Virus record (IMG/VR): IMGVR_UViG_3300029156_000001
Span: 1-64,000 of that record
Source of the DNA: a virus
Taxonomy: Duplodnaviria; Heunggongvirae; Uroviricota; Caudoviricetes
DNA length: 64,000 bases
Strand: one strand, 5' to 3'
Shown here: positions 883-28,869 of the stretch, one piece after another
How the letters are laid out: each line of letters starts with the position of its first letter
Numbering within the stretch: position 1 is the stretch's first letter
Notes under the pieces: generated by a model
The model's database searches: none
What the model was told of the DNA's origin: nothing
Seen by the model: the letters and a program-made list of their open reading frames with translations, nothing else
Position numbers and translations under genes: made by a program

Positions 883-2148
883 TTAGAAACCTGCTTTCTT
901 GAGGGCACGCATACGTGCCTGCTCCATTTTCTGTGCAATTTTAGCACCGTCCTTGAGGGCAGCAAACTCGTGGCCTCGGACCTGTCGCATAACTGCGGCA
1001 GCTTCAAGGAGACGATCACCCTGCGGATACTCAGCCCCAGCGTGTGTGGGACCTCGGCCACGGGCGTCGGCCTTCGAGGCCATGACTACCCTACGAGCAA
1101 GTAGGTCACCCTGTACGACTCCAAGTCGCATGAGTAAACGAACCTTTTTGGCGGGCTTCAAATCAATAAATCTATGTACATTCAGATGGTCCTTTGCCGT
1201 GACCGCTCCCACCTTGCGGTGGGTGTTCGGCACCCGCAAACGCTCACACATTGCATGCACCAGCGGTACACCCAAACGTTCGTGATCGTAGTGGTGTGGC
1301 AAATTGTCGTCCGGAGTGACGGCTTTACCCAAATCGTGAACTAGGGCCGCGAACATGGTTTCGTCGTCGGCCCCAAGCTCCACGGCTCGGTCGAGCACTT
1401 CTAGCGTGTGAACGTAGGCATCGCCCTCAGGATGATACTTCTCGGGCTGGATACGCCCCTGTAGTGCTGCGATTTCTGGAAAAGCAATCTCCAGGGCATT
1501 CATCTTTTCCAGGGCACAGAAGAACCGAGAGGGTTGCGGCGTACGTAGTGCCTTCTCAAGCTCTCCCCACAAACGCTCGCCCGGAAGGTCGAGAATTTCA
1601 GGCAGGGCTTCCTGAGCAGCAAGCACAAGACCAGCACTAATTTTCATTTCAAGCTGTGCCGCAAAACGAGCGGCACGCAGAACACGCAGGGGATCTTCTG
1701 CAAAATGATAACCCACGGGGGTAAGTGCCTTGTATTCAAGGTCTTCAACGCCACCGTAAGGATCGATGATGTTGCCCGTAAAAGGGTCCATTGCCATTGC
1801 GTTGATCGTAAGATCACGACGCCTGAGGTCTTCCTCAAGGGTCACGTCTTCGGTCTGACACTCGAAGCCTGTGTAGCCGGTGCCAGTCTTGCGTTCAAGG
1901 CGGGCCATAGCTACTTCGGCACCATCTACGGTCCATACTGGAAAGCTATCGCCAACCAGCTTACCGCCTTCGTCAGTCAGTAGAACTGCAATTCGGTGGG
2001 AGGTCATGCCGACCACCACGATATCCACATCCTTGGGTCTACGACCCAAGAGCATGTCTCGTACGTATCCGCCGACGATGTACGGCTGGCCGCCAGCGTC
2101 TCGGATCCGCTCACAAAGCGGTAGATACTTTTCGTGTCTCATGACCAC
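883..2148 (-). CDS. cca: CCA-adding tRNA nucleotidyltransferase with C-terminal HD domain (bifunctional Cca-like)
   Basis: N-terminal GGxVRDxLLG...DxD polymerase-beta head motif; RxxDxTINA motif; HD phosphohydrolase motif (HDLGK) in C-terminal half; 421 aa matches bacterial Cca length. Confidence 0.85.
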   Translation of the reverse strand: MVMRHEKYLPLCERIRDAGGQPYIVGGYVRDMLLGRRPKDVDIVVVGMTSHRIAVLLTDEGGKLVGDSFPVWTVDGAEVAMARLERKTGTGYTGFECQTEDVTLEEDLRRRDLTINAMAMDPFTGNIIDPYGGVEDLEYKALTPVGYHFAEDPLRVLRAARFAAQLEMKISAGLVLAAQEALPEILDLPGERLWGELEKALRTPQPSRFFCALEKMNALEIAFPEIAALQGRIQPEKYHPEGDAYVHTLEVLDRAVELGADDETMFAALVHDLGKAVTPDDNLPHHYDHERLGVPLVHAMCERLRVPNTHRKVGAVTAKDHLNVHRFIDLKPAKKVRLLMRLGVVQGDLLARRVVMASKADARGRGPTHAGAEYPQGDRLLEAAAVMRQVRGHEFAALKDGAKIAQKMEQARMRALKKAGF

Positions 2149-2521
2149 CTATTATAGCACCCAATGGTGCTAGTGTCAAGGTTTCTTTTCTTCGAATCTA
2201 CTACAATCCTTAACGTTGGCTACCACAATCGGGGGAGCTTCGATACCCGCTGGTCTCCAAAAACAGATTGTCTTGATTCGTTCGTGTTCGATGGTGTGTT
2301 CGATCAACTCACCTTCGCCCTCTGGGGGTGAAGGTGGGGCGTCCTGATATGGGGTGCCGTCGAAGATATCAAAATCATTGCTCGGAGGTTGGGGCAAACC
2401 CATTCCGCTCATGCCAGCATGATAAACTCGCTCTAATTCGCTTTCATGCACCGTCATGCCAAATCTACATTGCCAGCACTTACTACGTTTGGGATCTACT
2501 TGCGGCTCTTGTTCGTTCATA

Positions 2522-3004
2522 CTAAAAGATGGACATATCTGTCCACTCCACTTCGTCAGGATGGGGAGCGTAGCGTGCAATCTGCTTACGCAAGGTGTCC
2601 AACGGGACACTGTGCGTATTCCGTTGATGAAGCAACTCGGGATCCCAGGGGCCGGGAGAACGGATAATCTGTACCTCGTAACCATACTGGTCAGCAAGAT
2701 CCAAATACGGTTGCATTTCTTTAATGCGAGTGCTCGTGTTCGAGACAACTACGCACGGCACGTCATGAAACATAAGGTGTTCCACCTTAAGTTGACACAA
2801 ATGATGAGCCTGAGAAAGTTTACTGCTATCAAATTTGTATTTCGAACCCGATGATCTAATAAAGAATTCATCGGCTTCAAACCATGGCAACCCGTGACGA
2901 CCAGTTTCCCAAAAACTTTGAGATTCACTAGCAAGATGTCTAGCAATTGTGCTTTTGCCAGATCCGCTTATGCCACGAACAATGATTAGTTTACGTGTTT
3001 CCAT
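2522..3004 (-). CDS. P-loop kinase, polynucleotide kinase-like (candidate RNA 5'-kinase)
   Basis: Walker A GISGSGKST at the N-terminus; ~160 aa size typical of Pnk kinase domain/AAA_33; located in the tRNA-repair neighbourhood. Confidence 0.5.
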   Translation of the reverse strand: METRKLIIVRGISGSGKSTIARHLASESQSFWETGRHGLPWFEADEFFIRSSGSKYKFDSSKLSQAHHLCQLKVEHLMFHDVPCVVVSNTSTRIKEMQPYLDLADQYGYEVQIIRSPGPWDPELLHQRNTHSVPLDTLRKQIARYAPHPDEVEWTDMSIF

Positions 3005-3477
3005 TTTCTTTTATGTACAATATGTCCAACTGTTCTAGTGCAGACGTGATATTTCTGAGCTAGTAATCTGTAAGAACTACCGTTACGATGTTCGTTACGT
3101 ATTTGCTTGACTTGTTTTTCATTAAGCTTGGCGTTATGTCTATTAATGCCTCTAGTCATACAGGTTGCTGGCACACGGAATAGTCGTTGTTTTTGTGCTG
3201 CATCAATTGCATTATCTTTTTTGGTACCTAAAAACAAGTGATCTGGATTAACACATGGAGGATTGTCGCAACTATGACAAACACATAGGTCTTTAGGAAT
3301 GTCACCGTGATGTATGATCCACGAAACTATATGAGCTTTTCGCACCCGTCCTTGAAAACCAAACGTACCGTAATCATGTCTTTTAACACCGTTTCTAAAC
3401 AACCAGCAAGAGTTGGTCTTATCAACCTTGTCCCAAAAGCGGTCAAGGATTTGCTGATCGATCAGTTTTTTCTGCAT
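2986..3477 (-). CDS. HNH homing endonuclease (HNH_3 family with C-terminal HTH)
   Basis: CWxxxG...HIVSWxxxHG...CHxCDNPxCVNPDHLFLGTxxDN motif; C-terminal helix-turn-helix. Confidence 0.8.
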   Translation of the reverse strand: MQKKLIDQQILDRFWDKVDKTNSCWLFRNGVKRHDYGTFGFQGRVRKAHIVSWIIHHGDIPKDLCVCHSCDNPPCVNPDHLFLGTKKDNAIDAAQKQRLFRVPATCMTRGINRHNAKLNEKQVKQIRNEHRNGSSYRLLAQKYHVCTRTVGHIVHKRKWKHVN

Positions 3478-4750: not shown

Positions 4751-5899
4751 TTAGTGAAACTCACTTCCTCCCTTTCGGAGCAAATAAGCATCAGACACAA
4801 TTTTGAAGATCATGCGTTTGGGATTCGGGTCTTTTGACCCCTTGCCCCAAGTGCGTTCAATGTGCCAGGGTCGCACCACGACTCCTTCGCGAATATGGCT
4901 ATCTTCGAAGGTGGTGTCGCCCTGGGCTTCTTCTACCAATTGCTCGAAATCGAACACGCCTCGTGTGAGCACGGGCACCAGAGGTAGGCCATATTCCTTT
5001 TCTAGATACTCAAGCGTTGACCACGGCAAGTATTGACCGTTTAGGGAAATGTCGAATACACGATATCCCTTCTCGCTCTTGGCTCCATAGTGAAGATCCT
5101 GTACTCCCGCACCATAGATTTCACCAAAGATAAGGACGGAGTTGAGTTCGCCGTCCATGTCACGGCCCCATGCATGCACGGCCCACTCGAAGATACGTCC
5201 GAGTAGATCGTAGTGCAATTCTGCCGGTAGCCCATAGACGCCGCAGTCTCCGGGGTCACGCTGAGTACGATGCGTTCCGGTTACGAATTCGAAGTTCGTA
5301 TCACGCCAACCCCGGAAATGGATGCCGTGACAGCTATCGCGGCCTTCGTCCGTGGCATCGATGCCGATACGACGAACCCACCCAATACGGCTGTTGGTGC
5401 CATGAATCTTCTCTGTTACGACGATGGGTTCGCCGTAACAGAATTTATCTCTATGATTACGGAGATTTTGGATATCCGTGTAACGGTGGAAAAGCGGGTG
5501 TTCGTACCGCATCTGTCCCGCCGACATACCAGCAGGAGGAGCGGGCGGCTCATATTTCGTGATACCGTAATGTTCGCTCAAATCGGCACCGATTTCGGCA
5601 CCGCTTTCGTTGGGAACAAGAAATCCGAAGCTCACGACTTGTCGGAGTCGGGCAGCCCTAACGCGGCCAGAGTCCGCGTTCTTTTTGAAGGCAAGATACT
5701 GAGCTACGCCCCACTCCTCGGCCTGAGGCCGGGGAACCATACTATCAGGCTGTACGTGTACTAGAACGTCCCCAACGCTATGGGTATCCTTGCCTACGAT
5801 CACATCCCAGCCGCCGACCGTGGCCACTTCCAGCCGGTCAGCGTTCGGGTGCGGCTTGATCGCTTCGATGGCGACCGGCTGTACTACTAGTTCACTCAC
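4751..5899 (-). CDS. RNA ligase (Rnl2-like nucleotidyltransferase) fused to N-terminal tRNA-binding (CsaA/Trbp111/Myf-type) domain
   Basis: N-terminal ~110 aa with HPNADRLxV...G...VIVG...GDxV OB-fold tRNA_bind signature. Then motif I EKIHGTN (identical to T4 Rnl2), FGEIYGxGxQ motif, EGVVVRP motif IV and C-terminal K-x-K motif V. Confidence 0.75.
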   Translation of the reverse strand: MSELVVQPVAIEAIKPHPNADRLEVATVGGWDVIVGKDTHSVGDVLVHVQPDSMVPRPQAEEWGVAQYLAFKKNADSGRVRAARLRQVVSFGFLVPNESGAEIGADLSEHYGITKYEPPAPPAGMSAGQMRYEHPLFHRYTDIQNLRNHRDKFCYGEPIVVTEKIHGTNSRIGWVRRIGIDATDEGRDSCHGIHFRGWRDTNFEFVTGTHRTQRDPGDCGVYGLPAELHYDLLGRIFEWAVHAWGRDMDGELNSVLIFGEIYGAGVQDLHYGAKSEKGYRVFDISLNGQYLPWSTLEYLEKEYGLPLVPVLTRGVFDFEQLVEEAQGDTTFEDSHIREGVVVRPWHIERTWGKGSKDPNPKRMIFKIVSDAYLLRKGGSEFH

Positions 5900-6215
5900 T
5901 CTGGAAACGCTTTCTGATATCGCCGCCGATACCCCTTAATCCTTTTTCAAGATCATCTGCAAGCTGATCCTTGTCCACACGATCGAGAACGTCTCTTGCT
6001 TCCTCCCCAACAGATTGACGAACCTTGTCTACCATTTCAACGGCTTGTTCTGCCGTATCATTAGCTTTTTCAAGGTTATCATTGAGGCGTTTTACTTGAA
6101 AACACGCGAGCAGTAGCACGGCTACGGCAGCGACAATTAGAATAACTCGGGATCTTTTCATTCGCTTTCGCTCATAGTATTTTGGTGAGGGCGGCGAGAC
6201 TCGAACTCGCAACAT
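5892..6215 (-). CDS. small signal-anchored membrane protein
   Basis: N-terminal basic stretch followed by single hydrophobic helix (VILIVAAVAVLLLACF). Confidence 0.35.
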   Translation of the reverse strand: MLRVRVSPPSPKYYERKRMKRSRVILIVAAVAVLLLACFQVKRLNDNLEKANDTAEQAVEMVDKVRQSVGEEARDVLDRVDKDQLADDLEKGLRGIGGDIRKRFQSE

Positions 6216-6259
6216 CTAGCTTCTAAGGCTAGCGACTCTTCCAATTGGCCTACGCCCCC
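6183..6259 (-). tRNA. tRNA, short variable arm, apparent anticodon UAG (Leu-type) with A73 and encoded CCA
   Basis: hand fold: acceptor GGGGGCG/CGCCCTC, T-arm GCGAG-TTCGAGT-CTCGC, anticodon arm CTAGC-CTTAGAA-GCTAG; body resembles Trp-type tRNA. Confidence 0.55.
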
Positions 6260-6272
6260 GTATTTTGTGTTT

Positions 6273-6350
6273 TGGTGAGGTAGGTGGGAGTCGAACCCAC
6301 AAACTTCTAGTTTTTGAGACTAGTGACTCTGCCAATTGGCCTACTACCTC
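6273..6350 (-). tRNA. tRNA, short variable arm, apparent anticodon CAA (Leu-type) with A73 and encoded CCA
   Basis: paralog of the 6183-6259 tRNA (same D-arm TAGGCCAATTGG); anticodon arm CTAGT-CTCAAAA-ACTAG; T-arm GTGGG-TTCGACT-CCCAC. Confidence 0.55.
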
Positions 6351-6360
6351 ATTTGGGAGT

Positions 6361-6912
6361 TTACTCCCAGATGTATCTTTCTCCGTTCCAGCGACGACGC
6401 TTGGATTGTTCTTCTGGAAATCTAAAAGTGCCGATCACTCCTGGGGTCATGAGATCGGGTTGAAAGTTTTTACCGTATTGTTCTCGAAGCTCGGCGGTGT
6501 CTACGAGTTTCAGTTGTGGTTCCTGCGTCTCGACACAGGGGTTCCCATCTAGATCGAGGGCCTTTCCCCAATCTTTTAGAGTTGGCTTTGGCCATTCCAT
6601 TTTGCCTGCCGGTGCGTTATAGATACGATGGATACTGGCATCGAACTTGAGTTCGGTCACGGGGATCGGATCGTCCTTTCGAAGAACCGTATCAGGAGCA
6701 ACGATTAGCCATACGCTAACCAAACCCATGTTAATTAGTTGTTCTTGGGTGTAGGTGTCCGAGGCTTGTGGCGGCCCCAGAAGCTTGCCGTCGAGCCATT
6801 GATACACATAGGCTTCGTCTTCGCCGGGTTGACTATGCCAGCTACGAACAATCGTCATTTCGAAACGCTCGCCATCAGGGTCATAACTATTACCACAGTA
6901 TCTAACTTGCAT
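6361..6912 (-). CDS. hypothetical protein
   Basis: 183 aa ORF, tightly packed with neighbours on same strand. Confidence 0.4.
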   Translation of the reverse strand: MQVRYCGNSYDPDGERFEMTIVRSWHSQPGEDEAYVYQWLDGKLLGPPQASDTYTQEQLINMGLVSVWLIVAPDTVLRKDDPIPVTELKFDASIHRIYNAPAGKMEWPKPTLKDWGKALDLDGNPCVETQEPQLKLVDTAELREQYGKNFQPDLMTPGVIGTFRFPEEQSKRRRWNGERYIWE

Positions 6913-7441
6913 CGTTCAAAATCCTAATTGCCTTCGCGGCGTGCCGCTCAGTTAAACCGTCTTTGAAACTTGTGTGAACAAAGTTTTGTCTCTGTGAAGG
7001 TAACATGTCCGAATCATCATCAAGGATAACGAATTCACGTTCGAGACGAGGAAACTCTGCTTCGTGTTCTTTTAGCCAAAGTGCAATCTCGTCTCCACGC
7101 TCAGGACGATGTGGCTTACCCCACGTATCGTTGACCTGTCCCTGGAAGCTTTCATGTAGGGTGCCTTGTTCGGCTTGCCACACTATACTCAAATCTTTGG
7201 TTTGAGAATGGATTGTAATGTCTCGCTCAGCGAGCCATTTTGTGAGTTTTTTGCGGCCACGACCATTGAACATTCGCCACGTTGACGATAACACCACGAT
7301 TGCATTAGTTTCTTGTACGATCCGTTGAAGACGGTCGCACATATCGGGACACAATGTTGCAACGCTGTCAGCGTGTGGACCCGTCCAGGTCTTCTGACAG
7401 TTGAGAACTCCGTCCACATCTAGGAAGATGATTTTGTGCAT
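6902..7441 (-). CDS. HAD-superfamily phosphatase (polynucleotide 3'-phosphatase-like)
   Basis: N-terminal motif I FLDVDGVL (DxDGT-type), later SSTW and DDD motifs typical of HAD/PNK phosphatase domain. Confidence 0.55.
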   Translation of the reverse strand: MHKIIFLDVDGVLNCQKTWTGPHADSVATLCPDMCDRLQRIVQETNAIVVLSSTWRMFNGRGRKKLTKWLAERDITIHSQTKDLSIVWQAEQGTLHESFQGQVNDTWGKPHRPERGDEIALWLKEHEAEFPRLEREFVILDDDSDMLPSQRQNFVHTSFKDGLTERHAAKAIRILNDAS

Positions 7442-7531
7442 TACCAGAGGAGATCTTCGGTCTGTTGCTCTGTAATCTTCATGGTGTCATTATACGCCCT
7501 AACGAGCGTAAGTCAAGCTCTTTTTAGTGAA

Positions 7532-7608
7532 TGGTCCGACTAGCAGGATTCGAACCTGCACTCGATGGGCTCTCGACCCACCTCCTCTGCCAATTGGGAT
7601 ATAGTCGG
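7532..7608 (-). tRNA. tRNA, C1-G72 acceptor, apparent anticodon GAG with C33 (identity uncertain)
   Basis: perfect 7-bp acceptor CCGACTA/TAGTCGG, T-arm GCAGG-TTCGAAT-CCTGC, encoded CCA; anticodon loop TCGAGAG is atypical. Confidence 0.5.
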
Positions 7609-7691
7609 ATGGTGGGCCTCCGAGGTAATGCTCCCCGTTCTTCTGGTTAAAAGCCAGTTGCTTCACTTTAAAAGCTTGAAGCCCTTTTGTT

Positions 7692-7768
7692 TGGTACGGG
7701 CAGAAGGATTTGAACCCTCGTAAATCGGTTTAGAAGACCGATGCATTAGTCCACTATGCTATGCCCGC
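7692..7768 (-). tRNA. tRNA-Arg (anticodon UCU)
   Basis: acceptor GCGGGCA/TGCCCGT, D-stem GCAT/ATGC, anticodon arm TCGGT-CTTCTAA-ACCGA, T-arm GAGGG-TTCAAAT-CCTTC, encoded CCA. Confidence 0.7.
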
Positions 7769-7795
7769 ATTCTTCGTTCTAACGAACGAAGTGAG

Positions 7796-7871
7796 TGGTC
7801 GGTCCCCTGGGGTACGATCCCAGATCTGACAGATTAAGAGTCTGCTATGTTGCCAATTACACCAAGGACCG
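7796..7871 (-). tRNA. tRNA, apparent anticodon CUU (Lys-type), atypical T-loop
   Basis: acceptor CGGTCCT/GGGACCG, D-stem GTGT/ACAT, anticodon arm GCAGA-CTCTTAA-TCTGT, T-arm CTGGG-ATCGTAC-CCCAG (non-canonical T-loop). Confidence 0.4.
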
Positions 7872-8251
7872 TTTTCTAGAAGTAGTCGTCGTAATCGATT
7901 GGCTCTTTTCGTTTCTCGGGGTGCTCGTCATAATACTTACCTAGATCGCGAGCCCATTCCTGATAAAATGAAAGAGGTAATTGTTTCTGTTCTTTGACAG
8001 GGCGTTCTTTACTTGTTTCAATGGCAACTGCGGCCCCCAGAAACGCTGCTATAAAAGTACCAATCATCTGGAATTTTTTGCTGATCTCTTGGAGATCGCA
8101 GAGCATTGCTGATCACAAAAATGTAGTTCGTCTTCGCAGTTGCAATGATAGGCCCATCCGAAGATGCCATCCCACCAAAATGGTTGACATCCATTCGCTT
8201 CTGCTAGTTTTTTGATTTCCCTATCGATTTCTTCGGGCATTTTGATTATGG

Positions 8252-8674
8252 TCATCTGATCGCCTCTGCAAATGCATTCAGGCCCTCTTGTGTGTCGATG
8301 TGGTAGCAATTAGGCGTACCGCCTTCGGGCCACCATTCATCCGGTGCGGGACAACCACAGTGACCCGCTACGCGAACTACTGTACCGTGCGTTTCATGAA
8401 GCTTAATGGCTTGTTCCATCGTAAGCGAAACACGGGCCGGTGCTTTCCAGGTGGCCACCCAATAGTACCACGCTCGCGTGAGCGTCCAGCCGCCCTGACA
8501 CTCTTTGGTTCCGTCAGGACCGGAACCAAGATAGCCCACAATGTTGGATCGCACCTCACCTTTGCTTCGTAAGCACTCGGGCCAAGGATCTCGGATAGGA
8601 ATACCGGCTTCAATCAATTCGTTGGTGCATTCAACATCAACGATTTCAGGTTCTTCACCAGCTAAATTCTTCAT
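8252..8674 (-). CDS. hypothetical protein (Cys/Trp-rich)
   Basis: 140 aa ORF upstream of tRNA-Ile; no recognisable motif. Confidence 0.35.
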   Translation of the reverse strand: MKNLAGEEPEIVDVECTNELIEAGIPIRDPWPECLRSKGEVRSNIVGYLGSGPDGTKECQGGWTLTRAWYYWVATWKAPARVSLTMEQAIKLHETHGTVVRVAGHCGCPAPDEWWPEGGTPNCYHIDTQEGLNAFAEAIR

Positions 8675-8682
8675 GGTGTATT

Positions 8683-8760
8683 TGGTCCGAGAGGGAGGAT
8701 TTGAACCTCCGCATCACGACTTATCAGGCCGTTGCCTTGACCAGACTTGGCTACTCTCGG
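8683..8760 (-). tRNA. tRNA-Ile (anticodon GAU)
   Basis: acceptor CCGAGAG/CTCTCGG, anticodon arm ACGGC-CTGATAA-GTCGT, T-arm GGAGG-TTCAAAT-CCTCC, encoded CCA. Confidence 0.6.
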
Positions 8761-8761
8761 T

Positions 8762-20840: not shown

Positions 20841-20944
20841 ATCTATTCTCCATTTAAAGCGTTTACTTGAAATACAAAAACAGATATGGTGTCACGGTGG
20901 TCTATGTGTCTACGACATGATTTGCCTTTCGGGCAAAGAGTTGA

Positions 20945-21020
20945 TGGAGGGCACGGTGAGGTTCGAACTCACATCTTCCCGGTTTAGAGCCGGGTGCATT
21001 TCCACTAATGCTACGTGCCC
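20945..21020 (-). tRNA. amber suppressor tRNA (anticodon CUA), U73
   Basis: fully canonical 76-nt fold: acceptor GGGCACG/CGTGCCC, D-arm GCAT-TAGTGGAA-ATGC, anticodon arm CCCGG-CTCTAAA-CCGGG (U33, anticodon C-U-A, A37), T-arm GTGAG-TTCGAAC-CTCAC, encoded CCA. Confidence 0.65.
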
Positions 21021-21147
21021 CTACTCCCCGCTAACGGGGGAATTGTAAATGGCTGCCCTGGTTATGTTGCTTCCTTAGGAATTCAGATATCATGCAAGAA
21101 AACTGGCTACAGCCGCATTTGTTTCTGCCGCTTTTGCGGCAGTTGAG

Positions 21148-21223
21148 TGGTGGAAAGCTGGGGAATCGAACCCCACACACGGAGCTTGCAAAGCTCTGTC
21201 GCCTCCTTGGTACATGGCCCCCC
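21148..21223 (-). tRNA. tRNA-Ala (anticodon UGC), G3-U70
   Basis: acceptor GGGGGGC/GCTTTCC with G3-U70, anticodon arm (A)GAGC-TTTGCAA-GCTC(C), T-arm TGGGG-TTCGATT-CCCCA, ends CCACCA; D-arm poorly defined. Confidence 0.45.
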
Positions 21224-21234
21224 CATTATAAGCG

Positions 21235-21312
21235 AGTGACTAGGATTCGAACCTAGATCGTGAGCGTCAATAAGACTGGCCAGTCTGGGTGCTCATGTGT
21301 TACCGTTACACT
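21235..21312 (-). tRNA. tRNA-like element with expanded (~25 nt) anticodon-region loop; possible pseudogene
   Basis: T-arm CTAGG-TTCGAAT-CCTAG, D-arm GTGT-AACGGTA-ACAC, acceptor AGAGTGA/TCACTCG, no encoded CCA; TGAGC...GCTCA stem encloses 25 nt including palindrome AGACTGGCCAGTCT. Confidence 0.3.
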
Positions 21313-22664
21313 ATCACTCTATTCTCATATGTCTTTTACAGCATCTTCCGGAAGCTTCGTCTGTTTCTGTTACACTGACGTTGACATAATCGAAGTTCTA
21401 AAACTCGAAAAAGGTAGGACTTGCACCCACCAGCGGTTGTACGACCTATTTAGCTGCCTAATATTTTACGAGGACTCGAACCTCTTACCCTCCAAGGGAA
21501 TGCCGAATCGAACGGCTAACTGCTATTTTCATTTTCGAGCGTTTTGAAACGCAGGCACGACTGGAATCGAACCAGTATTTCCCTGCCGGGCGTACTATCC
21601 ATATTATACTACGTCTTAGTCCTGCGTTGAAAGATAGAGCATCTTGCGATCCCCTTCGTTTGTTTCGCTAGGATTCGCTGTAAATTCTTTCAAGGGCTTC
21701 CACACCCTCACCGGATCGTACGAACCCCGGCGGCTTCTACAACTATTACTATCCACAAACAAACTGAGGCTACGTCACACCTGTCGCAAGTTCACGTAGT
21801 CAGGTTCAGAAGGCATCGGCAATGTACTAGTCATTGCTTACTGAATTCATTTCCTTCGTCTGCCATACTCTATTGTACTATTGTAGGGGTTAAGGACTCC
21901 CTACGAGCCCCAATTTTGGTAACCACTGAAATTGGAAACGGGGCCGATTCACCTTTTTGGATCCACACTTTTATCTTGTCGGCAAAACCATTAGTGTTCT
22001 TAAATCTCGCACCGATCTAGTATAGGCAGCATTCCCGTGGTGACACACGGTCTCTTGCCACAACCTTAATCGTACGCTTCGGATGCGTCACCATCCATCC
22101 CTGTACTCGCTCATCCAGCTTCCGCAACGCTAGTGGATACCAGCCTTGCCGAAGGCAAGCTTTTCTCTATCCTGCGGCACACCCGAAGGCGACCGACTAA
22201 CAGCCTCAGCCCGGCCAAGAGCATAAGGTTTAATGTCCGGAGAACTCGGACAATACGTTCGCTTCGCTCACGAAGCGTTGATTTTGCGGGTTATGGGCCT
22301 CCCGCCAGCCACCTAAGAGTAACCGTCCGCTTTGACGTAACGAGACAGCAAGCGTAGCCGTCTCCCTCTTTCGGTCGTTCGATTTTGGAGCAAAAGCTCC
22401 AAGGAATATATCGTGCCGGTAGCTAAGCGGCAGCCGGTGATCGCTAATACAGGCCAAGTTTCCATCGATGTTTCCATCGTGTACTGACAAGCTGGTGGCT
22501 GGACGATACGTCCCTTACAGCAGCGGACGCTGAGCGTCTCCGCTGCCGTAGAGGTGATCCCGAGTTGTCGGATGGCATCGCTGCCAGAGCCCGAGGTATT
22601 GCCGCCTCACGATCCCCTGCGAAAAGCAGGCTAGACCCGGCTCGTCACGTCACCGCGACAGGAC

Positions 22665-22692
22665 ATTATACACCGACCAAGGCCAATGTCAA
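22665..22692 (-). promoter_or_regulatory. strong sigma70-type promoter (TTGACA-17-TATAAT) firing into the ORF-free region 22660-21330
   Basis: minus-strand sequence TTGACATTGGCCTTGGTCGGTGTATAAT (plus-strand reverse complement at 22665-22692). Confidence 0.6.
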
Positions 22693-22703
22693 GCTGTCCC
22701 TAG

Positions 22704-22728
22704 AAAAAATCAACCCGGCACTTCCGGG
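22704..22728 (-). terminator. intrinsic terminator downstream of HNH gene
   Basis: hairpin CCCGGAAGTGCCGGG followed by TTGATTTTTT on the minus strand. Confidence 0.6.
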
Positions 22729-22770
22729 TCTGAGATAAATATACACTACACGAGACGGTTTGTCAAACAC

Positions 22771-23250
22771 CTAATCTATATCTTTCCACCTTCGTCTGTG
22801 GATGATATGGGCTACCATTGTCTTAGAAATGCCAAACAGTACAGCAATCTTCATCTGGGACATACCATCGGAGGCAGATTGTCGGATTGCGATAACGTCC
22901 TTAATCGTCAGTTTTGCCCTCATTTGTGGGGCACGTCCTTTATCCATCATATCACGGATATTGGTCTTTTGGGTGCCCTGAAACAAATGATCTGGTCGTA
23001 CGCACCTTCGATTATCGCACTCGTGTAAAATATATTGATCGTCTAAGGTGCCATACGTAAGTCGCCAGGACATACGATGGGCACCGATTGTGCCTTCTGA
23101 TCTGCGACCAAGTGCAAACCACCCATAGCCATTTGGATAAAGTGCTCCGGTCCACTCCCAACATTGAGTAGACATATTGCTATCTACACCAAATATACCA
23201 GAGTGTTTATTGACCTTGGCCCAAAAACGATCTTCGATTGATTTTTTCAT
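22771..23250 (-). CDS. HNH homing endonuclease (HNH_3 family with C-terminal HTH)
   Basis: CWEWTG...AHRMSW...HxCDNRRCVRPDHLFQGTQKTN motif; paralog of the 2986-3477 endonuclease. Confidence 0.8.
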   Translation of the reverse strand: MKKSIEDRFWAKVNKHSGIFGVDSNMSTQCWEWTGALYPNGYGWFALGRRSEGTIGAHRMSWRLTYGTLDDQYILHECDNRRCVRPDHLFQGTQKTNIRDMMDKGRAPQMRAKLTIKDVIAIRQSASDGMSQMKIAVLFGISKTMVAHIIHRRRWKDID

Positions 23251-23314: not shown

Positions 23315-24163
23315 TTATAGACGAATGATGAAGCCCCCGGCTCCAGCGGCGGGATCCGTGTCGTCGTCGTAGTCGTCTTCATCGAAAACGTAACAGGTCT
23401 CTTCCTCTTCCTCAACCTCCGTCTCGTCGTAGAGCGGACTTTGGAGGATGGTCGCGTGATCGACCTCGCGGAGCACTTCGTATTTGCAGACCCGGAGCTT
23501 CTGAGCGGAAGCGTAGGGCACGCTCACGCAGTCAGCGGGATCGACAGCAACCAGGACGACGCGACCGCCACTGGTAGCCCAGGACGACGCATAGCTCTGC
23601 GAGCCTACGTGATATCCGTACGAGCACGACTGACGGGCATCGTCGTCCACCTGATTACGCGGCATGGAAATCACTTTGCCCGGCGAGTTGTCAACCGTGC
23701 CAGTGTATCGATCAGTGAAATCACCGCTGATACCTTTGTAGCCAACGAAGCGTCCATCTTCCATGAGGGCCATGCCCTCATTTTCAAGGAAGCCATAAAG
23801 CTCCTCGACCGAACGACGCGACGGGTTGGACATGAGCCGCTCAAGGAACCGCACAAGCGGCTGGAACGGCAGACCTTGATTGAAGAATTGCGTAATGCGA
23901 GTGGCAACGGTGCCATGCACCGGCTCGCCATCGAAGGACACTTCACCGTATTGGTTAACGGTAACGTTGCCATCGGTATAGGTACTCATGGCTTGCGGAA
24001 TATCCACCAGCGTCGGGAGCACGTCCCAGGTCTTGTCACGAATCGCATCAAGAATGGCTTGATGGTTCGGGTGACTTTGACCAATCGAATGAGTTTGACC
24101 TTCGAGAATCAGGGTGACGTTGAGATCGCCCGTGATCAGGTACTTCGGTTGTTCAGTATTCAT
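23315..24163 (-). CDS. hypothetical protein with acidic C-terminal tail
   Basis: 282 aa; C-terminus EVEEEEETCYVFDEDDYDDDTD; coupled to downstream rIIA-like gene. Confidence 0.4.
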   Translation of the reverse strand: MNTEQPKYLITGDLNVTLILEGQTHSIGQSHPNHQAILDAIRDKTWDVLPTLVDIPQAMSTYTDGNVTVNQYGEVSFDGEPVHGTVATRITQFFNQGLPFQPLVRFLERLMSNPSRRSVEELYGFLENEGMALMEDGRFVGYKGISGDFTDRYTGTVDNSPGKVISMPRNQVDDDARQSCSYGYHVGSQSYASSWATSGGRVVLVAVDPADCVSVPYASAQKLRVCKYEVLREVDHATILQSPLYDETEVEEEEETCYVFDEDDYDDDTDPAAGAGGFIIRL

Positions 24164-24165
24164 GG

Positions 24166-26115
24166 TTAGGATCCCAATTCGTTTTTCATTTTGATGTATT
24201 CAAGTACATCTTTAAGGTCTGCGTATCGTAGGTTGATGTTACTGATCAGCGGATACCGCTGTCGGAAAAGGTCAAGGTAGTCCGGAGCTTCCGGAAGTGT
24301 CAGATCGAATCGTTGCAGTAACGTACGCCACTCATGCGGCGGCTGCTCCGTCCGTAGGAAGGCCACGACGTTCGTGCATGTTTCTGACAGACCGTCGATT
24401 CCATTAAGAAAACTACTCTCGTAAGGATTATAACTATCGTGATGCCATACGGCCCGGGTCATGTCGTTAGCTGTGGTGACGAAGGTTTCCATCGCTTTAC
24501 GGGCCAGCACTTCAAGGTCTTTCAGACCAAGGCCGTCTCGTAGTTTTTCATAGCGATTCATCGGCAGTCCGTACACCGTCTCGATACCAATGCTGGCAGC
24601 GATACGCTGAGCTTCGGAGGGATCCATATGAACCCCCATGAAAACAACATGGTATCCTCTACGTTGGACGCATGCTGCCTTGGTAGTGGTCACGTTGGCT
24701 TCGTCAACGTTTGTCCACTTCTCAGACATGCGACGAGCCCAGCCGTCACCAATTTGCTTAATGTAGGTACGGTTGCCACCGTTAGAGCCGCCGCCTCCGT
24801 TATTGCGGGGTGCTTGAGGAATTTCCGTTAGCTTGATCGCGGGCTCGCCCAGCATTTTAGCAAAGCGTGCTGCGTTTTCGATGGTGGCAAGATAGACAAT
24901 CGTGCCTCGCTCTTGGTTACGGATCCAGTGTCGCAGGTTGTTCTTAAGTCCTTGCCTAATGCTGCCGGGTTCTTCCACGTCGCATTCAACGAATGCATAT
25001 TGCGAACCCGAGTAAGGACGCAGATGACTCTCGAAACGGTCCTGCCCAACAAAAAGCTTATCTCCGCGAAGCTCCGCTTTACGAAGAGTGTAGACGCCTT
25101 CGCGTGCAGTCGGTAGCGAATTGACCGTAGCAGAAAAGTTAAGTAGGTTGCCAAATTGCTTAAGGGCAATCAAACGCTCCAGTAGGCTATTGCAATGTCC
25201 AAGCGAAGATTGAATTTTCTTGTTGACAATCTCCTGAGCTTCATTAATACGTTTTTGAATAGCGGCCACAGTGGCCTTATCGTATTGGAGTTCTTCTCGG
25301 CTCACGGCAGGCTGACACTCACCCACGGGCACGTACAGCACAAGCTCCGCAGATCGACCAAGCTTGTGTTCAATTTTGTTTTCTGAAACAGCGTAACACA
25401 CCTTGCCCATGACGACGCTGATTTTTCCAGCGGCATTCGCATCGCCATCGTAGATGGCCCAACCGTCACCCTCGTAGACCGGCTCTGCCTCTTCTTCGAA
25501 TTCAACACGGGCACCCGTGAAATTCGGCTTGACAGGGAAAAACCGGAAAACACTTTCGGCGTTACGTTGGAATTCGTATTGATCCCCAGGTCGCGTATCG
25601 AGACGAACCTCAAGGCCATCGGGCTCGTCAGTGGATTGCGTATTGACCAAAGCAATGGTCGGCTCACCCGTTTCGGCTTTAAATGCTGAATATGTACGAG
25701 CTTCGCCATTCAGATAAGCGACAACCGTAAACATATCGGTATAGGCAAAGGGCGATTTCGAGCCCAGGCCAAAGCCACCAGTCGCTTCTTCGGATTCACG
25801 ATTGATAGATTCGAAGTAAACGGTGTAAACATTGAGGATGGCGTCGTGATCGAGGCTCGGTCCGAAGTCGCGGATCGCGAACCAGGGCTCCATCGAGTTC
25901 GGAAGATGAACGTCGAAAGGCACGTCGGCCTTGCCGACCGCGATGTGGGCGTCTGCCGCGTTGGTGGAAAGTTCGCGGACGATGGCAAGCCTGGGATCCG
26001 TATAGAGCCCGTCGGACAGGATTTGGAACGCCTGGACGTTCGCTGCGATCCGGAAGGTTTGCTCCGGAAAGTCGCCTGAACGCTTAATGTCGCGTTTCTG
26101 AGAGGTGAGTTTCAT
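24166..26115 (-). CDS. rIIA: rIIA-like protein (HATPase_c N-terminal domain)
   Basis: N-terminus FRIAANVQAFQILSDGLYTDPRLAIVRELSTNAADAH aligns with T4 rIIA [37 protein letters not shown]; 649 aa. Confidence 0.6.
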   Translation of the reverse strand: MKLTSQKRDIKRSGDFPEQTFRIAANVQAFQILSDGLYTDPRLAIVRELSTNAADAHIAVGKADVPFDVHLPNSMEPWFAIRDFGPSLDHDAILNVYTVYFESINRESEEATGGFGLGSKSPFAYTDMFTVVAYLNGEARTYSAFKAETGEPTIALVNTQSTDEPDGLEVRLDTRPGDQYEFQRNAESVFRFFPVKPNFTGARVEFEEEAEPVYEGDGWAIYDGDANAAGKISVVMGKVCYAVSENKIEHKLGRSAELVLYVPVGECQPAVSREELQYDKATVAAIQKRINEAQEIVNKKIQSSLGHCNSLLERLIALKQFGNLLNFSATVNSLPTAREGVYTLRKAELRGDKLFVGQDRFESHLRPYSGSQYAFVECDVEEPGSIRQGLKNNLRHWIRNQERGTIVYLATIENAARFAKMLGEPAIKLTEIPQAPRNNGGGGSNGGNRTYIKQIGDGWARRMSEKWTNVDEANVTTTKAACVQRRGYHVVFMGVHMDPSEAQRIAASIGIETVYGLPMNRYEKLRDGLGLKDLEVLARKAMETFVTTANDMTRAVWHHDSYNPYESSFLNGIDGLSETCTNVVAFLRTEQPPHEWRTLLQRFDLTLPEAPDYLDLFRQRYPLISNINLRYADLKDVLEYIKMKNELGS

Positions 26116-26220: not shown

Positions 26221-27228
26221 TCAGTCTCGCTCAGGCGTGGGCATTTGCATAAGCAGCCCACCATTGAGCCCTTCGGAGCCACCCATAAACCATTGCGGGT
26301 ATTCTCCGTTCCACTGGTCCGCAAGTCGCATCTGGAGTTCGATCCTTTTCATTTCCAGAAACACGGGGTTGCTTTGAGCTTCCGCAGTAGCTTCGTTGAT
26401 GGACCGCAGGCCGTCCGCTTCACCTTGAGCGATCGTGCGTGCTTTTTCAGCAAAGGCCAAAGCTTCTTGTTCGATCTGAGCGTTCTTGTCGGTCTGTGCC
26501 TCTAGCAGAGCGGCGGCAACCACCTTCTCTTGCTGAGCCACGAACGTTGCGTTGATCGACTCTTGGATCTGAGGGTCTTCGTAGGTGAAGCCACCGAACA
26601 TACCGACAGTCGTAATGGTGATGCCGTACTGCTCAAAGAACGGAATGGTATCTGCCCTAATAGCCTCGATGATCTCGGTCTTTTCGGTACGCAAAAGATC
26701 CATGTTGGATCGTGCGGCCCTGTCGGCGGCAACCGCCTGGATGCGGGCACGAACCTCGGTATCCATAACGTCTGCCAGCGAACGGGCACGATACTGATAC
26801 AGGAATCTCGACGTATCTGCTTCCTCAACCTTGCCGGTTGCAGTAAACCCTACCGAGAAGCCGATGGAATCTTTGGACTCAATCCAGATAGCTTCATCCC
26901 TATCTGCGTTGGTGCCACCTTCGGCAACCCATTCACGAGTCACGGGGGTACGGTCAACAGTGATTACGCGAATCTGAGGCATGTACTCGCCAGTCAGATA
27001 AACGTAACCAGTTTTCACCCAGCGGTGCGGCACCTGGATCCGCTTGGTCGCAACCTTGCGGGTCTCAAGATACTCTTCCGAATCGAAGGAAACTTGATCA
27101 GCGTTATTGCTATCTAGCGGAATAACGTAAGCAGTCTCGGAGTTTTCGATAGTCTCGAACACCTGAGGCATGTACGGACGACAACTAGTAAGGCCAATAA
27201 TGACCAAGAGCGGCAGTAGGAATTTCAT
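26221..27228 (-). CDS. SPFH/band-7 domain lipoprotein
   Basis: signal peptide with LTSC lipobox; central SPFH-like region and Ala/Glu-rich coiled coil (EQEALAFAEKARTIAQGEADGLRSINEATAEAQ). Confidence 0.55.
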   Translation of the reverse strand: MKFLLPLLVIIGLTSCRPYMPQVFETIENSETAYVIPLDSNNADQVSFDSEEYLETRKVATKRIQVPHRWVKTGYVYLTGEYMPQIRVITVDRTPVTREWVAEGGTNADRDEAIWIESKDSIGFSVGFTATGKVEEADTSRFLYQYRARSLADVMDTEVRARIQAVAADRAARSNMDLLRTEKTEIIEAIRADTIPFFEQYGITITTVGMFGGFTYEDPQIQESINATFVAQQEKVVAAALLEAQTDKNAQIEQEALAFAEKARTIAQGEADGLRSINEATAEAQSNPVFLEMKRIELQMRLADQWNGEYPQWFMGGSEGLNGGLLMQMPTPERD

Positions 27229-27473
27229 GATGTGGTAATGGCCCTTTTGATAGCTCGGCCATAAAAAGCGAAAGTAGTGAGTAGAACGGCCACGGCACTA
27301 TAGATAGGCGTATTGGACCGAAGGGTCTGATTCAGGAACATGGAAGTGGACTCTTGAGAGCCGCCATTGACTTGTCGCATCGCGGCGTCGATCGCTTGGC
27401 TGGGATCAGCCTGCACGAAGAATGCCACGGCAATGATCGCCAGGACGACCAAGGTAAATAGAAAGTGTTTCAT
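27225..27473 (-). CDS. small two-TM membrane protein
   Basis: 82 aa, two hydrophobic helices; coupled between SPFH gene and Thg1-like gene. Confidence 0.4.
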   Translation of the reverse strand: MKHFLFTLVVLAIIAVAFFVQADPSQAIDAAMRQVNGGSQESTSMFLNQTLRSNTPIYSAVAVLLTTFAFYGRAIKRAITTS

Positions 27474-28147
27474 TGAGTGAATGTCTCGATGTAATCTCGT
27501 TGTTGGGTGAAGATGGGAATGTTCCTATCTACCCTTTTCCCTTTTTCAAGCACACAAAAACCACGCTTAAAATGCGTGGGTGTATCATTCCAGTTGGTAC
27601 CTTCTGCCATTAGCATATCTTGTAGATCGCTACAGGACTTATCCTGGCACTCTCGATGGCTGAAATTGGCACGGGCTACCATCTGAACAGAATTGCGAGT
27701 AGCATCCTGCTGTCTCCAAATGAAGTAGTTGGCCACCTCCTCACGAGGGAGGTTAAAGATACGGGCGTCGAATTGTGCCAATGGTTTCACCATTGGATTG
27801 CCTGCTCTCTTGTCTGCCGTTAGCATATACCTATTAAATGCGTTGGTTGACACCGATGCAGCAATTGATACCATTTTCTGAATATTGCCACCGAACCACG
27901 CCTGGGTATCAAGTGTATCATAATCAGTAATTAGAATAGAGATCTCGTCACTTTGACCATAGGCCAGTTTCGCACCTTGAATCTCTTGCATCAAAGAGGT
28001 TGCCGTCGCGACCATTGTATTGTGTAATGTCTGATCGAATGGCGTATCAAACCCACGAGTGTACGAGTGGAACGCTCGCCCATCGACACGTAGAATCGCA
28101 GGCATCCTACGTACGAGGGAGTGCTTCCACACGCCCTCGTACGTTTT
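27470..28147 (-). CDS. Thg1-like protein (tRNA-His guanylyltransferase family 3'-5' nucleotidyltransferase)
   Basis: ILRVDGRAFHxYTRGF...PFDxxLHNTM...LAYGQSDEISIL closely matches Thg1 VVVRLDGRNFHRF...AYGQSDEYSFVF; start placed at MKTYEG (28147) to abut the upstream gene stop. Confidence 0.75.
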   Translation of the reverse strand, partial: KTYEGVWKHSLVRRMPAILRVDGRAFHSYTRGFDTPFDQTLHNTMVATATSLMQEIQGAKLAYGQSDEISILITDYDTLDTQAWFGGNIQKMVSIAASVSTNAFNRYMLTADKRAGNPMVKPLAQFDARIFNLPREEVANYFIWRQQDATRNSVQMVARANFSHRECQDKSCSDLQDMLMAEGTNWNDTPTHFKRGFCVLEKGKRVDRNIPIFTQQRDYIETFTQ

Positions 28148-28158
28148 CATTCTGTCAC

Positions 28159-28869
28159 CTAAGCTTGTTCGGTCCATGCTTTGTCTCCAGTCCAGATGAT
28201 GTAGGTATAACTCTCGACAATCGGGCAGCAGTACCACTTGGTTCTACCCACAGTCCCCTGGTCGAAAGCATGATGGTGTCCGAAGAACCAATGCTTTGGT
28301 CTAAAGTGTTCACGGAGAGCTTCGAGCGATCGTTTGTCTCCTATGCCGAAGATTTCGTCACCATGACGTTCATCAGAATAGGGCACAGTATAAGGATGCT
28401 CGTGACTAAAGATTGCGTGAATGTCACCCTCGGTTTCGAGAGCGGCCATCACTTCACCATATTTAATGGTTTCTTGTGGCCACCAGCTTTTACCCTCGAT
28501 CCTATATGCCTTATCAATAGAGGAGGCACCACCGAAGAACATCATGCGGTATCCGTCCACTTCGAGGACGGAACCGCGTGGCATGTACGTCCAGCCGGGT
28601 TGCCACGCTCCACCGTCTTTTTCAAGCTGATCGAAATTCTCGTGGTTACCATCAAGCCAAAGCTTTTCGACCGCATGGTAGCGGTCGAGGAGATCGCCAG
28701 TGAAGAAGCCGCGACTGGCCTTGAAGGGTTTAGTGCCGGGCCAACCATACGAAAAGTCTCCCACCTGGACAATATGCGTAATGTCCGAGTGTTGACGCAT
28801 GGCTTTTGCAATCATGCGATTCAACGCATGCCACGATCCATGCACATCACCAATAATGAGAAACTTCAT
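28159..28869 (-). CDS. metallophosphoesterase (calcineurin-like phosphoesterase)
   Basis: GDVHG...VGDFxxxG...GNHE motifs in order. Confidence 0.7.
   Translation of the reverse strand: MKFLIIGDVHGSWHALNRMIAKAMRQHSDITHIVQVGDFSYGWPGTKPFKASRGFFTGDLLDRYHAVEKLWLDGNHENFDQLEKDGGAWQPGWTYMPRGSVLEVDGYRMMFFGGASSIDKAYRIEGKSWWPQETIKYGEVMAALETEGDIHAIFSHEHPYTVPYSDERHGDEIFGIGDKRSLEALREHFRPKHWFFGHHHAFDQGTVGRTKWYCCPIVESYTYIIWTGDKAWTEQA

Follow-up and report, generated by a model that had tools for sequence, protein, structure and literature searches.

The DNA analysed here is a 64,000-nucleotide (nt) window of an uncultivated phage (IMG/VR record IMGVR_UViG_3300029156_000001). All coordinates are positions in this window and, unless stated otherwise, the genes named below lie on its minus strand, as do all credible genes from position 1 to ~32 kb. 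Our subject is an array of tRNA genes and, scattered in and around it, a set of genes whose products belong to families of RNA repair and tRNA maintenance; we refer to this set as the toolkit. Identical proteins are found on contigs of up to 168,763 bp, the longest of which is not necessarily a whole genome. We estimate a genome of about 170 kb that carries about 27 tRNA genes and ten RNA-repair-type genes, and the window appears to represent its early region.

A previous annotation made from the bare letters (the sequence-only reading) had assigned eight open reading frames (ORFs) of the window to such families. A hidden Markov model scan with Pfam recovered all eight at the coordinates given there, on the minus strand and in the families named, with scores above the curated gathering thresholds. 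The earlier count of at least 22 tRNA genes was likewise borne out (25 found by ARAGORN and one by Rfam in the window), and the claim that every step of tRNA repair is covered holds on paper, as families for healing, sealing, both termini and peptidyl-tRNA release are all represented. A scan of nearly all remaining ORFs of at least 66 amino acids (aa) found no RtcB, 2H, KptA, Macro, NUDIX or NAMPT protein in the window.

Predicted healing and sealing enzymes

The candidate for 5′-end healing is a stand-alone P-loop polynucleotide 5′-kinase-like protein (2522-3004; Pfam AAA_33, 3e-9). Its best PDB match, a weak one, is the kinase domain of T4 Pnk (residues 2-139, E = 2e-5); the P-loop GSGKST is present, but the alignment does not place the catalytic Asp unambiguously. 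With its 160 aa, the protein comprises the kinase domain alone, lacking the fused HAD 3′-phosphatase of T4-type Pnkp. Matches to it occur in 817 phage records, the top ones of which, in Aeromonas phages, adjoin a gene for a ‘putative RNA ligase 1’.

A stand-alone HAD phosphatase of the ‘Swiss army knife’ (SAK) RNA-repair family is encoded at 6902-7441. The HAD_SAK_2 profile (PF18143, 1e-28) aligns with it over its full length (1-139 of 139), and both the D8-V-D10-G-V (DVDGV) motif and a distal DDD are present, which makes the protein a candidate 3′-phosphatase. Two proteins of the window had originally been proposed to heal 3′ ends. The HAD protein retains this assignment as a candidate, but that of the second, a metallophosphoesterase (MPE), is doubtful in view of its phosphodiesterase-like fold and the NUDIX/NAMPT context of its homologues, both described below. 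The HAD gene overlaps by 11 nt the gene of a 183-aa protein of unknown function (p183, 6361-6912), so the two are probably translationally coupled; p183 has no match in Pfam, PHROG or NCBIfam.

Sealing is the predicted function of an ATP-dependent RNA ligase encoded at 4751-5899 (PF09414, 3e-18). Its original assignment to the RNA ligases stands, but its designation as Rnl2-type does not. The protein fails the Rnl2 model TIGR02307 (25.8 bits, cut-off 197.15) and passes the NCBIfam DraRnl/Rnl5 equivalog model TIGR02306 (Deinococcus DRB0094) with 156.8 bits at a cut-off of 151.15. An N-terminal OB domain (PF21189, PHA02142 OB, 2e-14) precedes the nucleotidyltransferase domain, which in Rnl2 enzymes is followed by a specific C-terminal domain. 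By sequence, its PDB relatives are confined to the Naegleria Rnl5 structures, the best of which (NgrRnl, 5COT) matches across the OB domain and motif I. The motifs K164-IHG (KIHG), E260 (EIYG) and EGVVV are present. The enzyme is classified as a ligase of the DraRnl/NgrRnl (Rnl5) type with a putative role in sealing 3′-OH/5′-PO4 nicks whose 3′-OH strand is RNA.

Predicted restoration of tRNA termini, and the tRNA genes

The gene at 883-2148 encodes a class II enzyme predicted to be CCA-adding, which ends in an HD phosphohydrolase domain as does E. coli Cca (Pfam PolyA_pol 3e-24, PolyA_pol_RNAbd 8e-9, HD 2e-8). It displays the motifs GGYVRD, DVD, RRRD and EDPLR as well as the HD dyad VHDLG. Against the NCBIfam model NF008137 (‘multifunctional CCA addition/repair protein’) it scores 379 bits, the cut-off being 451, in an alignment that covers 3-402 of 409 positions, and it reads as a divergent orthologue of that protein.

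A bacterial-type Thg1-like protein (TLP), a putative template-dependent 3′-5′ nucleotidyltransferase, is encoded at 27470-28150 (PF04446, 2e-31, scored on the ORF 27470-28237). Its start codon is the ATG at 28148-28150, located behind an AGGTGA ribosome-binding site, and the gene end of 28147 given in the sequence-only reading is corrected accordingly. The protein aligns over its full length with the TLP of Bacillus thuringiensis (4KGK, 1.7e-63), compared to 5e-10 for human THG1 and ~1e-10 for eukaryotic Thg1, and homologues occur in 164 phage records and in at least 225 IMG/VR loci. Bacterial-type TLPs have been shown to repair 5′-truncated tRNAs (PMC3701042, PMC4820378).

A third nucleotidyltransferase, RlaP (RNA-ligase-associated Pol-beta, T4 NrdC.11 type; 51710-52885), lies outside the range covered by the sequence-only reading and was absent from its list. 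It scores 49.1 bits against PF10127 (8e-13, cut-off 23), matches phrog_388 with 8e-82 and has counterparts in 1,726 phage records. As RlaP adds one or two nucleoside monophosphates to the 3′-OH of damaged RNA (PMC12776372), the published biochemistry supports a repair role.

The tRNA array proper stretches from 6183 to 21320 on the minus strand and contains 24 tRNA genes found by ARAGORN, interleaved with protein genes; Rfam adds a tRNA-Thr(tgt) at 18956-19029. The 3′ CCA is encoded in 25 of the 26 tRNA genes, and only three acceptor stems are not paired throughout, those of Gln(ctg), an initiator-like Met and an aberrant tRNA at 21232-21320. In tRNA-Gln and initiator tRNA-Met, positions 1 and 72 are expected to mismatch as part of tRNA identity. 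The CCA enzyme and the TLP are thus unneeded for the maturation of the phage tRNAs, and a role in repair is favoured over one in maturation. A function of the CCA enzyme in maturing these tRNAs was ruled out by the encoded CCA, and 5′ editing of mismatched phage tRNAs by the TLP was rejected because 1:72 mismatches are limited to the three tRNAs just named.

These features bear on a housekeeping interpretation of the toolkit, in which no host nuclease is involved and the enzymes service the large tRNA set and the translational load of the phage through end quality control, modification and the recycling of peptidyl-tRNA that drops off at rare or suppressed codons. The embedding of the genes in the tRNA array fits this interpretation, as does the fact that E. 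coli Cca and bacterial TLPs are themselves general quality-control enzymes, which is established knowledge (PMC3701042). Furthermore, an amber-suppressor tRNA and, in relatives, release-factor-like genes by the PTH2-like gene suggest that translation is manipulated, and the drop-off products would then need a hydrolase. However, with CCA encoded and stems intact neither end-restoring enzyme is required for maturation, both Cca and Pth are already supplied by the host, and the combination of a kinase, a 3′-phosphatase and a ligase is sensible only for breaks with 5′-OH and 3′-phosphate ends, which are the signature of metal-independent nucleases. We regard the housekeeping interpretation as unlikely and prefer the repair of tRNAs that host defences have damaged.

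The PTH2-like protein and the SpoU methyltransferase

A short and divergent PTH2-fold protein of 101 aa (19624-19929; PF01981, 1.4e-7) scores 32.1 bits at a Pfam cut-off of 23. Its AlphaFold model, which was built with 21 homologues, has a pLDDT of 95, and the top 13 PDB matches in a Foldseek search are all Pth2 structures (TM-scores of 0.72-0.80). H22, K47 and E72 are invariant in the family. At the positions that we take, from the archaeal Pth2 motifs, to be those of the GK lysine and the DAG-T aspartate, Tyr, Phe, His or Leu stands in for the usual lysine, and the acidic residue is the invariant Glu72. The protein is conserved at 62-84% identity across many metagenomic contigs, some of which are 165 kb and longer, and this divergent clade is matched by one phage record. 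We consider it a putative peptidyl-tRNA or N-acyl-aminoacyl-tRNA hydrolase.

The RNA 2′-O-methyltransferase at 10911-11477 belongs to the SpoU/TrmH class (PF00588, 4e-21; 75.9 bits, cut-off 29.7). Its NCBIfam matches are all far below their cut-offs (TrmJ/YjtD 2e-11, RlmB 3e-9, TrmL 2e-6) and its PDB matches are TrmJ (7e-5) and a TrmL-type enzyme (2e-3), which weakly suggests that its nearest relatives are the anticodon-loop enzymes TrmJ and TrmL. The gene is rare in phages: it matches only two of 50,697 phage records, the better of which is a 595-kb uncultured phage (57% identity).

The cREC-metallophosphoesterase pair

The MPE gene (28159-28869; PF00149 Metallophos, 1e-13) is abutted, with zero spacer, by a gene that the sequence-only reading did not list. 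It encodes a 130-aa ‘cyclic-phosphate processing receiver’ domain protein (cREC, 28870-29262; PF20274, 3e-15; 56.9 bits, cut-off 27) with the receiver-type acidic residues EDD and LDHD. The 130-aa form, which begins at M81, is identical to database protein P0001 and agrees with an independent gene call. No histidine-kinase partner of cREC was found in the seven contexts viewed.

All five metal-binding motifs of the MPE (GDVHG, GDF, GNHE, HEH, GHHH) are present and their residues are invariant across 36 homologues. The protein has no PDB match by sequence. Its AlphaFold model (pLDDT 96) is nearest in fold to Dbr1 (1e-10), followed by Mre11, GpdQ and Rv0805, and also resembles LpxH; the 50 best PDB fold matches include no entry named as lambda phosphatase or as Pnkp-type. 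An assignment of the MPE as a Pnkp-like phosphatase was dropped, as the fold search does not support it and its conserved neighbours are cREC, NUDIX and NAMPT rather than a kinase or ligase.

In the two closest relatives, loci L084 and L085, the gene order is cREC-MPE-NUDIX-x-NAMPT-x-TLP. Their translationally coupled cREC-MPE pairs are orthologous to that of the window (56-63% identity), in which the segment of NUDIX, p98, NAMPT and p332-388 (5262-8593 in L084, 7111-10502 in L085) is absent at 28150-28159. It is because this NAD+ salvage segment is absent that the pair abuts the TLP gene here, and a conserved three-gene cREC-MPE-TLP RNA module was rejected since the relatives insert NUDIX, NAMPT and two unknown genes before the TLP gene. 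Further contexts are similar: NUDIX-NAMPT lies beside cREC in L094; in L096 an NAPRTase gene is beside it, with NADAR and RlaP nearby; and in a Myrna-like mycobacteriophage the MPE homologue is near a phosphoribosyltransferase gene and a ‘nicotinate ribosyltransferase’ gene. In L086 and L087, which represent another phage lineage, cREC is surrounded by an array of 18 tRNA genes; an RNA ligase gene is 1.3 kb away, which counts in favour of the tRNA-repair reading, and an NMNAT-NUDIX gene 4 kb away. Because NUDIX and NAMPT follow the pair in relatives, cREC-MPE fits NAD+/ADP-ribose processing better than RNA 3′-end healing, and we have moved its assignment towards NAD+/ADP-ribose or cyclic-phosphate processing. 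Iyer et al. 2021 view NAD+/ADP-ribose and RNA-repair functions as overlapping (PMC7824862).

Promoters and transcription units

Seven perfect (12/12) sigma-70 sites are present in 34 kb compared to ~0.01 expected by chance. On the minus strand, a perfect site is directly 5′ of the CCA gene (2179-2151), an 11/12 site directly 5′ of the HAD gene (7516-7489) and another sigma-70 promoter directly 5′ of rIIA (26183-26156). A sigma-70-type promoter with 11/12 matches (29830-29803, minus) is ahead of the run p89-p89-cREC-MPE-TLP-p82-Band7, in which the junctions overlap or leave ≤8 nt. No whole-gene terminator-like site was found on the minus strand between the HAD promoter and the ligase gene, and a single transcription unit probably comprises HAD, p183, two tRNAs that have Leu anticodons, p107 and the ligase. 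Counting of 10-mers for repeated promoter motifs was uninformative.

Judging by these promoters, the toolkit probably consists of early genes that the host RNA polymerase transcribes. Early expression from host-type promoters fits counter-defence, which is equally true of most early phage genes.

A proposed role against tRNA-targeting defences

It is now recognised that defences targeting tRNA (PrrC, RloC, PARIS, some retrons, Cas13 collateral cleavage and VapC-like toxins) are widespread, and to our knowledge the survival of phages other than T4 and T5 against them is largely untested. Considering the family membership, motifs, promoters and co-occurrence of the genes, a role against such defences is plausible and is the reading that fits best. 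In our judgement, the balance tips slightly towards toolkit enzymes that preserve a working supply of tRNAs against cleavage, trimming or blocking by host defences.

The steps of this proposal all derive from family membership. The HAD-SAK phosphatase and the HD domain of the CCA enzyme would open and remove 2′,3′-cyclic or 3′-phosphate ends, the T4-Pnk-like kinase would phosphorylate 5′-OH ends, and the Rnl5-type ligase would seal the breaks. Missing nucleotides would be restored by RlaP at internal 3′ ends, by the CCA enzyme at the CCA end and by the TLP at the 5′ end. The PTH2-like protein would release stalled peptidyl- or N-acylated aminoacyl-tRNAs, and SpoU may 2′-O-methylate tRNA and so block metal-independent anticodon nucleases. 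The phage-encoded tRNAs would substitute for whatever is beyond repair.

The relatives show which of these genes travel together. Megablast of 11 kb retrieved no close GenBank phage relative, and pattern scans of IMG/VR with cREC, SpoU, the ligase and the RNA motif described below found no relatives. MPE homologues occur on many metagenomic contigs of ~137-182 kb, and close relatives sit on contigs of up to 158 kb (L084; this contig is labelled as a Hydrogenophaga metagenome-assembled genome, which points to Comamonadaceae as possible hosts). L084, L085/L099, L097 and L098 show synteny with the window for the TLP gene, rIIA-rIIB, the tRNA array and its amber suppressor, and the genes of the PTH2-like protein and the Rnl5 ligase, with 38-79% identity between the proteins; the ligase orthologue of L098 is 69% identical and located 8.5 kb from the PTH2-like gene. 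Variovorax phage V45v66 has six genes detectably in common with the window, four of which belong to the toolkit (kinase, ligase, PTH2-like and Thg1-like; hypergeometric P ~3e-4). With only six matching ORFs, V45v66 was rejected as a relative of the window phage.

Several observations weigh against the proposed role. The toolkit genes are dispersed among unrelated genes and spread over several early sigma-70 units rather than forming one operon. Among 80 IMG/VR loci, each partner occurs within 10 kb of the TLP gene in only four or five, too rarely for a conserved Thg1-centred operon, which was rejected. The best cultured-phage relatives are Caulobacter and Brevundimonas jumbo phages for the ligase, enterobacterial phages of ~145 kb for the CCA enzyme, Vibrio and RB43-like phages for the HAD protein, Stenotrophomonas, Xanthomonas and Bacillus phages for the TLP, and actinophages for the MPE. 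As the nearest relatives are in different phage groups, the genes appear to have been acquired separately. The hypergeometric test above carries a bias, as homologues of enzymes remain recognisable over greater distances than those of small orphan ORFs. At the level of individual proteins, the PTH2-like protein is without the canonical Lys and the DAG motif, and the subfamily of SpoU, and hence its target, is not assignable from the scores above. Rnl5-type ligases seal nicks in duplex RNA, and we know of no demonstration that they close anticodon-loop breaks. In view of its context in relatives, cREC-MPE is more likely part of an NAD+/ADP-ribose-processing module that just happens to adjoin the TLP gene.

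Taken to its end, this line of evidence would leave a collection of independently acquired accessory genes with unrelated roles and no functional unit. The cREC-MPE pair would act on NAD+/ADP-ribose signals or cyclic nucleotides, the kinase and the ATP-dependent DNA ligase of the window (13736-14869) on DNA ends and SpoU on rRNA, and the HAD protein would be a nucleotide phosphatase. The mosaic of best matches across phage groups, the presence of that DNA ligase, the cREC-MPE-NUDIX-x-NAMPT order in both closest relatives with NAMPT or NAPRTase beside cREC in L094 and L096, and the mycobacteriophage context and phosphodiesterase fold neighbours of the MPE all speak for such a collection. Yet each of HAD_SAK_2, RlaP, the Rnl5 ligase, the TLP, the CCA enzyme and PTH2 represents a family specific to RNA or tRNA, four toolkit families recur together in the unrelated V45v66, kinase homologues adjoin RNA ligases, and the HAD and ligase genes share a likely transcription unit with two tRNAs. 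We judge it improbable that the genes have nothing to do with one another, and a role in maintaining tRNAs under attack remains our preferred reading. The sequence-only reading had treated the set as one unit, which does not agree with the separate transcription units and the different phage groups of the best cultured-phage relatives of each gene; in sum, the toolkit is best seen as a guild whose genes are mobile separately but cohere in function.

Phages of this family are common in metagenomes, with contigs of 137-182 kb that number in the dozens, and they carry an unusually full set of candidate counter-measures in ~50 kb behind host-type early promoters. The region is also a compact source of enzymes: a split heal-and-seal system (kinase, SAK-type HAD and Rnl5 ligase), a phage TLP, a divergent PTH2 and a rare phage SpoU. 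As the concept is already known, the value of the window is that of a well-annotated example together with two corrections, one of the ligase type and the other moving cREC-MPE towards NAD+/ADP-ribose metabolism.

A probable structured RNA beside the tRNA array

Between an HNH gene (22771-23250) and the tRNA array lies a 1.45-kb stretch without a credible ORF (21321-22770, minus), which starts with two sigma-70 consensus promoters, at 22766-22738 and, with a perfect match, at 22692-22665. Four relatives share the nucleotide sequence of a core of ~250 nt (22011-22256; nhmmer E ~1e-27), always just 3′ of rIIB, although the rIIB proteins are only 44-63% identical. RNAalifold, with five sequences only, predicts 68 pairs, 25 of which display compensatory changes. 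Rfam 15 has no match to the core at E ≤ 1, and a covariance model found only five copies in the 1.9 Mb of loci scanned. We take 22011-22256 to be a likely structured RNA, hitherto undescribed, that heads the tRNA array. The gap as an intron-containing tRNA or a group I intron was rejected, because relaxed ARAGORN searches gave no matching acceptor stem and Rfam gave nothing at E ≤ 1.

The HNH gene at 22771-23250 lies between rIIB and this RNA; in the four relatives there is just short intergenic DNA at this location. Towards the array, at 21420-21590 (minus), four consecutive T-arm-like hairpins, GGTTCGATTCC, CCGTTCGATTCGG, GGTTCGAGTCC and GGGTGCAAGTCC, are present with no complete tRNAs around them, and the last, GGGTGCAAGTCC, is followed by a T-run in a terminator-like manner. 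The four hairpins could be decayed tRNAs or part of a long RNA.

The RNA allows the proposed role to be extended into one coordinated pathway in which the dispersed gene products would heal tRNAs, rebuild them at both ends and seal them, SpoU would then methylate them against re-cleavage, and the structured RNA (~250 nt, possibly as long as ~1.25 kb), transcribed from the perfect promoter, would serve as a scaffold or as a decoy for tRNA-targeting nucleases. This extension, in which the SpoU step is modelled on Hen1 of Pnkp-Hen1 and the Ro/Y-RNA platform is the comparable case for the scaffold, is speculative, and we hold it to be very unlikely.

Unusual tRNA genes

The aberrant tRNA-like gene at 21232-21320 (minus; Rfam tRNA, 45.9 bits) has 25 nt in place of the 7-nt anticodon loop, an A1-G72 mismatch and a C73 discriminator, and is the sole tRNA gene that does not encode its CCA. 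The ARAGORN assignment is either Leu(cag) or an intron-containing Asn(att). A class II tRNA at 17413-17501 (minus), 86-89 nt in length when its relatives are included, combines a long variable arm, a Ser/Tyr-like D-arm and G73 with a GUU (Asn) anticodon. It adjoins a normal tRNA-Asn(GUU) and is conserved in L097 (14169-14257) and L098 (11433-11518). The four tRNAs with Leu anticodons (tag, caa, gag and taa, at 6183-6259, 6273-6350, 7532-7608 and 16793-16871, respectively, minus) measure only 74-76 nt without CCA and therefore lack the long variable arm that bacterial tRNA-Leu has. Short ‘Leu’ tRNAs of this kind are also found in L086, L087, L097 and L098.

The amber-suppressor tRNA (anticodon CUA; 20945-21020, minus) is conserved in L086, L087, L097-L099 and L101. 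Recoding of TAG was rejected, as TAG ends 10 of the 27 confidently assigned genes in this region. L097 and L098 carry a short release-factor-like gene (PCRF and RF-1, 186-205 aa) near the PTH2-like gene, and none was found in the window. No tRNA for His, Gly or Tyr was found in the window either. Relaxed ARAGORN searches yield two weaker intergenic candidates, Lys(ttt) at 7610-7684 and Ser(tga) at 9383-9469 (minus). The initiator-like tRNA-Met(cat) with a C1-U72 mismatch (33640-33716, ARAGORN) is on the plus strand, opposite to the array, at the switch of gene orientation and beside perfect sigma-70 promoters at 33523-33550.

Other genes of the window

The toolkit is interleaved with genes for SSB, the ATP-dependent DNA ligase mentioned above, aspartate carbamoyltransferase (12708-13541), an outer-membrane beta-barrel protein (15697-16365), rIIA/rIIB and four HNH-type endonucleases. 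Since the beta-barrel protein belongs to the outer membrane, its gene suggests a Gram-negative host. Five HNH-type homing endonuclease genes are found in all (2986-3477, 11760-12437, 19020-19391, 22771-23250 and 43872-44417), the last of them outside the toolkit region. The homologues of rIIA (24166-26115) and rIIB (23315-24163) are 3′ of the Thg1-like gene, separated from it by the small membrane protein p82 and an SPFH/Band-7 protein (26221-27473); the order TLP ... rIIA-rIIB recurs in the Stenotrophomonas jumbo phage RAS14.

Further along the window are genes for an AAA_28 (NadR-like) kinase (50431-51060), a YpsA SLOG-family protein (53543-54058) and a dCMP/cytidine deaminase (55005-55568), all on the minus strand, and a GroES homologue is found among the small ORFs. 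At 36000-44000 the GC content is 0.55-0.58 versus ~0.49 elsewhere. The ORFs of this segment are short, overlapping and on both strands, and PHROG matches exist for only two of their products, both of unknown function.

Comparison with known systems

The logic of healing and sealing is that of T4 Pnkp and Rnl1, which repair PrrC-cleaved tRNA-Lys with a 5′ kinase, a 3′ phosphatase and an ATP-dependent ligase. In the window, however, the kinase and the HAD phosphatase are separate genes 4 kb apart, the HAD protein is of the SAK family and not of that of T4 Pnkp, and the ligase, unlike T4 Rnl1, is Rnl5-type with an N-terminal OB domain.

A parallel can also be drawn to the bacterial Pnkp-Hen1 system of ‘repair and immunise’, as healing and ligation are accompanied by a 2′-O-methyltransferase that could prevent re-cleavage. 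Here, this enzyme is a SpoU/TrmH knotted-fold protein and not Hen1, its gene is 5-8 kb from those of the ligase and kinase and in a different transcription unit, there is no fused Pnkp-type protein, and the MPE is unlike the Pnkp phosphatase in the fold search. The TLP displays the RxDG and SDEIS segments conserved in the B. thuringiensis TLP (PDB 4KGK; PMC3701042), from which it differs in being phage-encoded; a tRNA-His gene was not found in the window but is present in relatives. The cREC-MPE pair is orthologous to that of phage NAD+ salvage/ADP-ribose modules with cRec (Iyer et al. 2021, section 3.4.8), whereas NUDIX and NAMPT are missing from the window both at that position and elsewhere in the 64 kb.

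The toolkit had been thought not to have been described as a unit. This proved incorrect, as Iyer et al. 2021 (Viruses 13:63; PMC7824862, section 3.4.9) present the same ensemble as one RNA-repair and ribosome-rescue system of large phages, and in this extend earlier work (their reference 178). Their set consists of tRNAs, ATP-grasp RNA ligases, polynucleotide kinase, HAD (including Swiss-army-knife), calcineurin-like and HD phosphatases, as well as cRec, RlaP, CCA-adding enzyme, Thg1 and PTH2 (PMC7824862). Both this component list and the proposed role, the reversal of host attack on tRNA, are like those of the window. The differences are that the contigs here are ~137-182 kb in length (168,763 bp for the longest with identical proteins), below the usual 200-kb jumbo limit, although these contigs are perhaps partial; that the ligase is Rnl5-type, while the paper stresses Rnl1, Rnl2 and RtcB; and that a SpoU 2′-O-methyltransferase, which section 3.4.9 does not list, is present. 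What is new compared to that ensemble is the phage lineage, an Rnl5-type ligase in this role, the rare SpoU gene and the divergent PTH2 clade.

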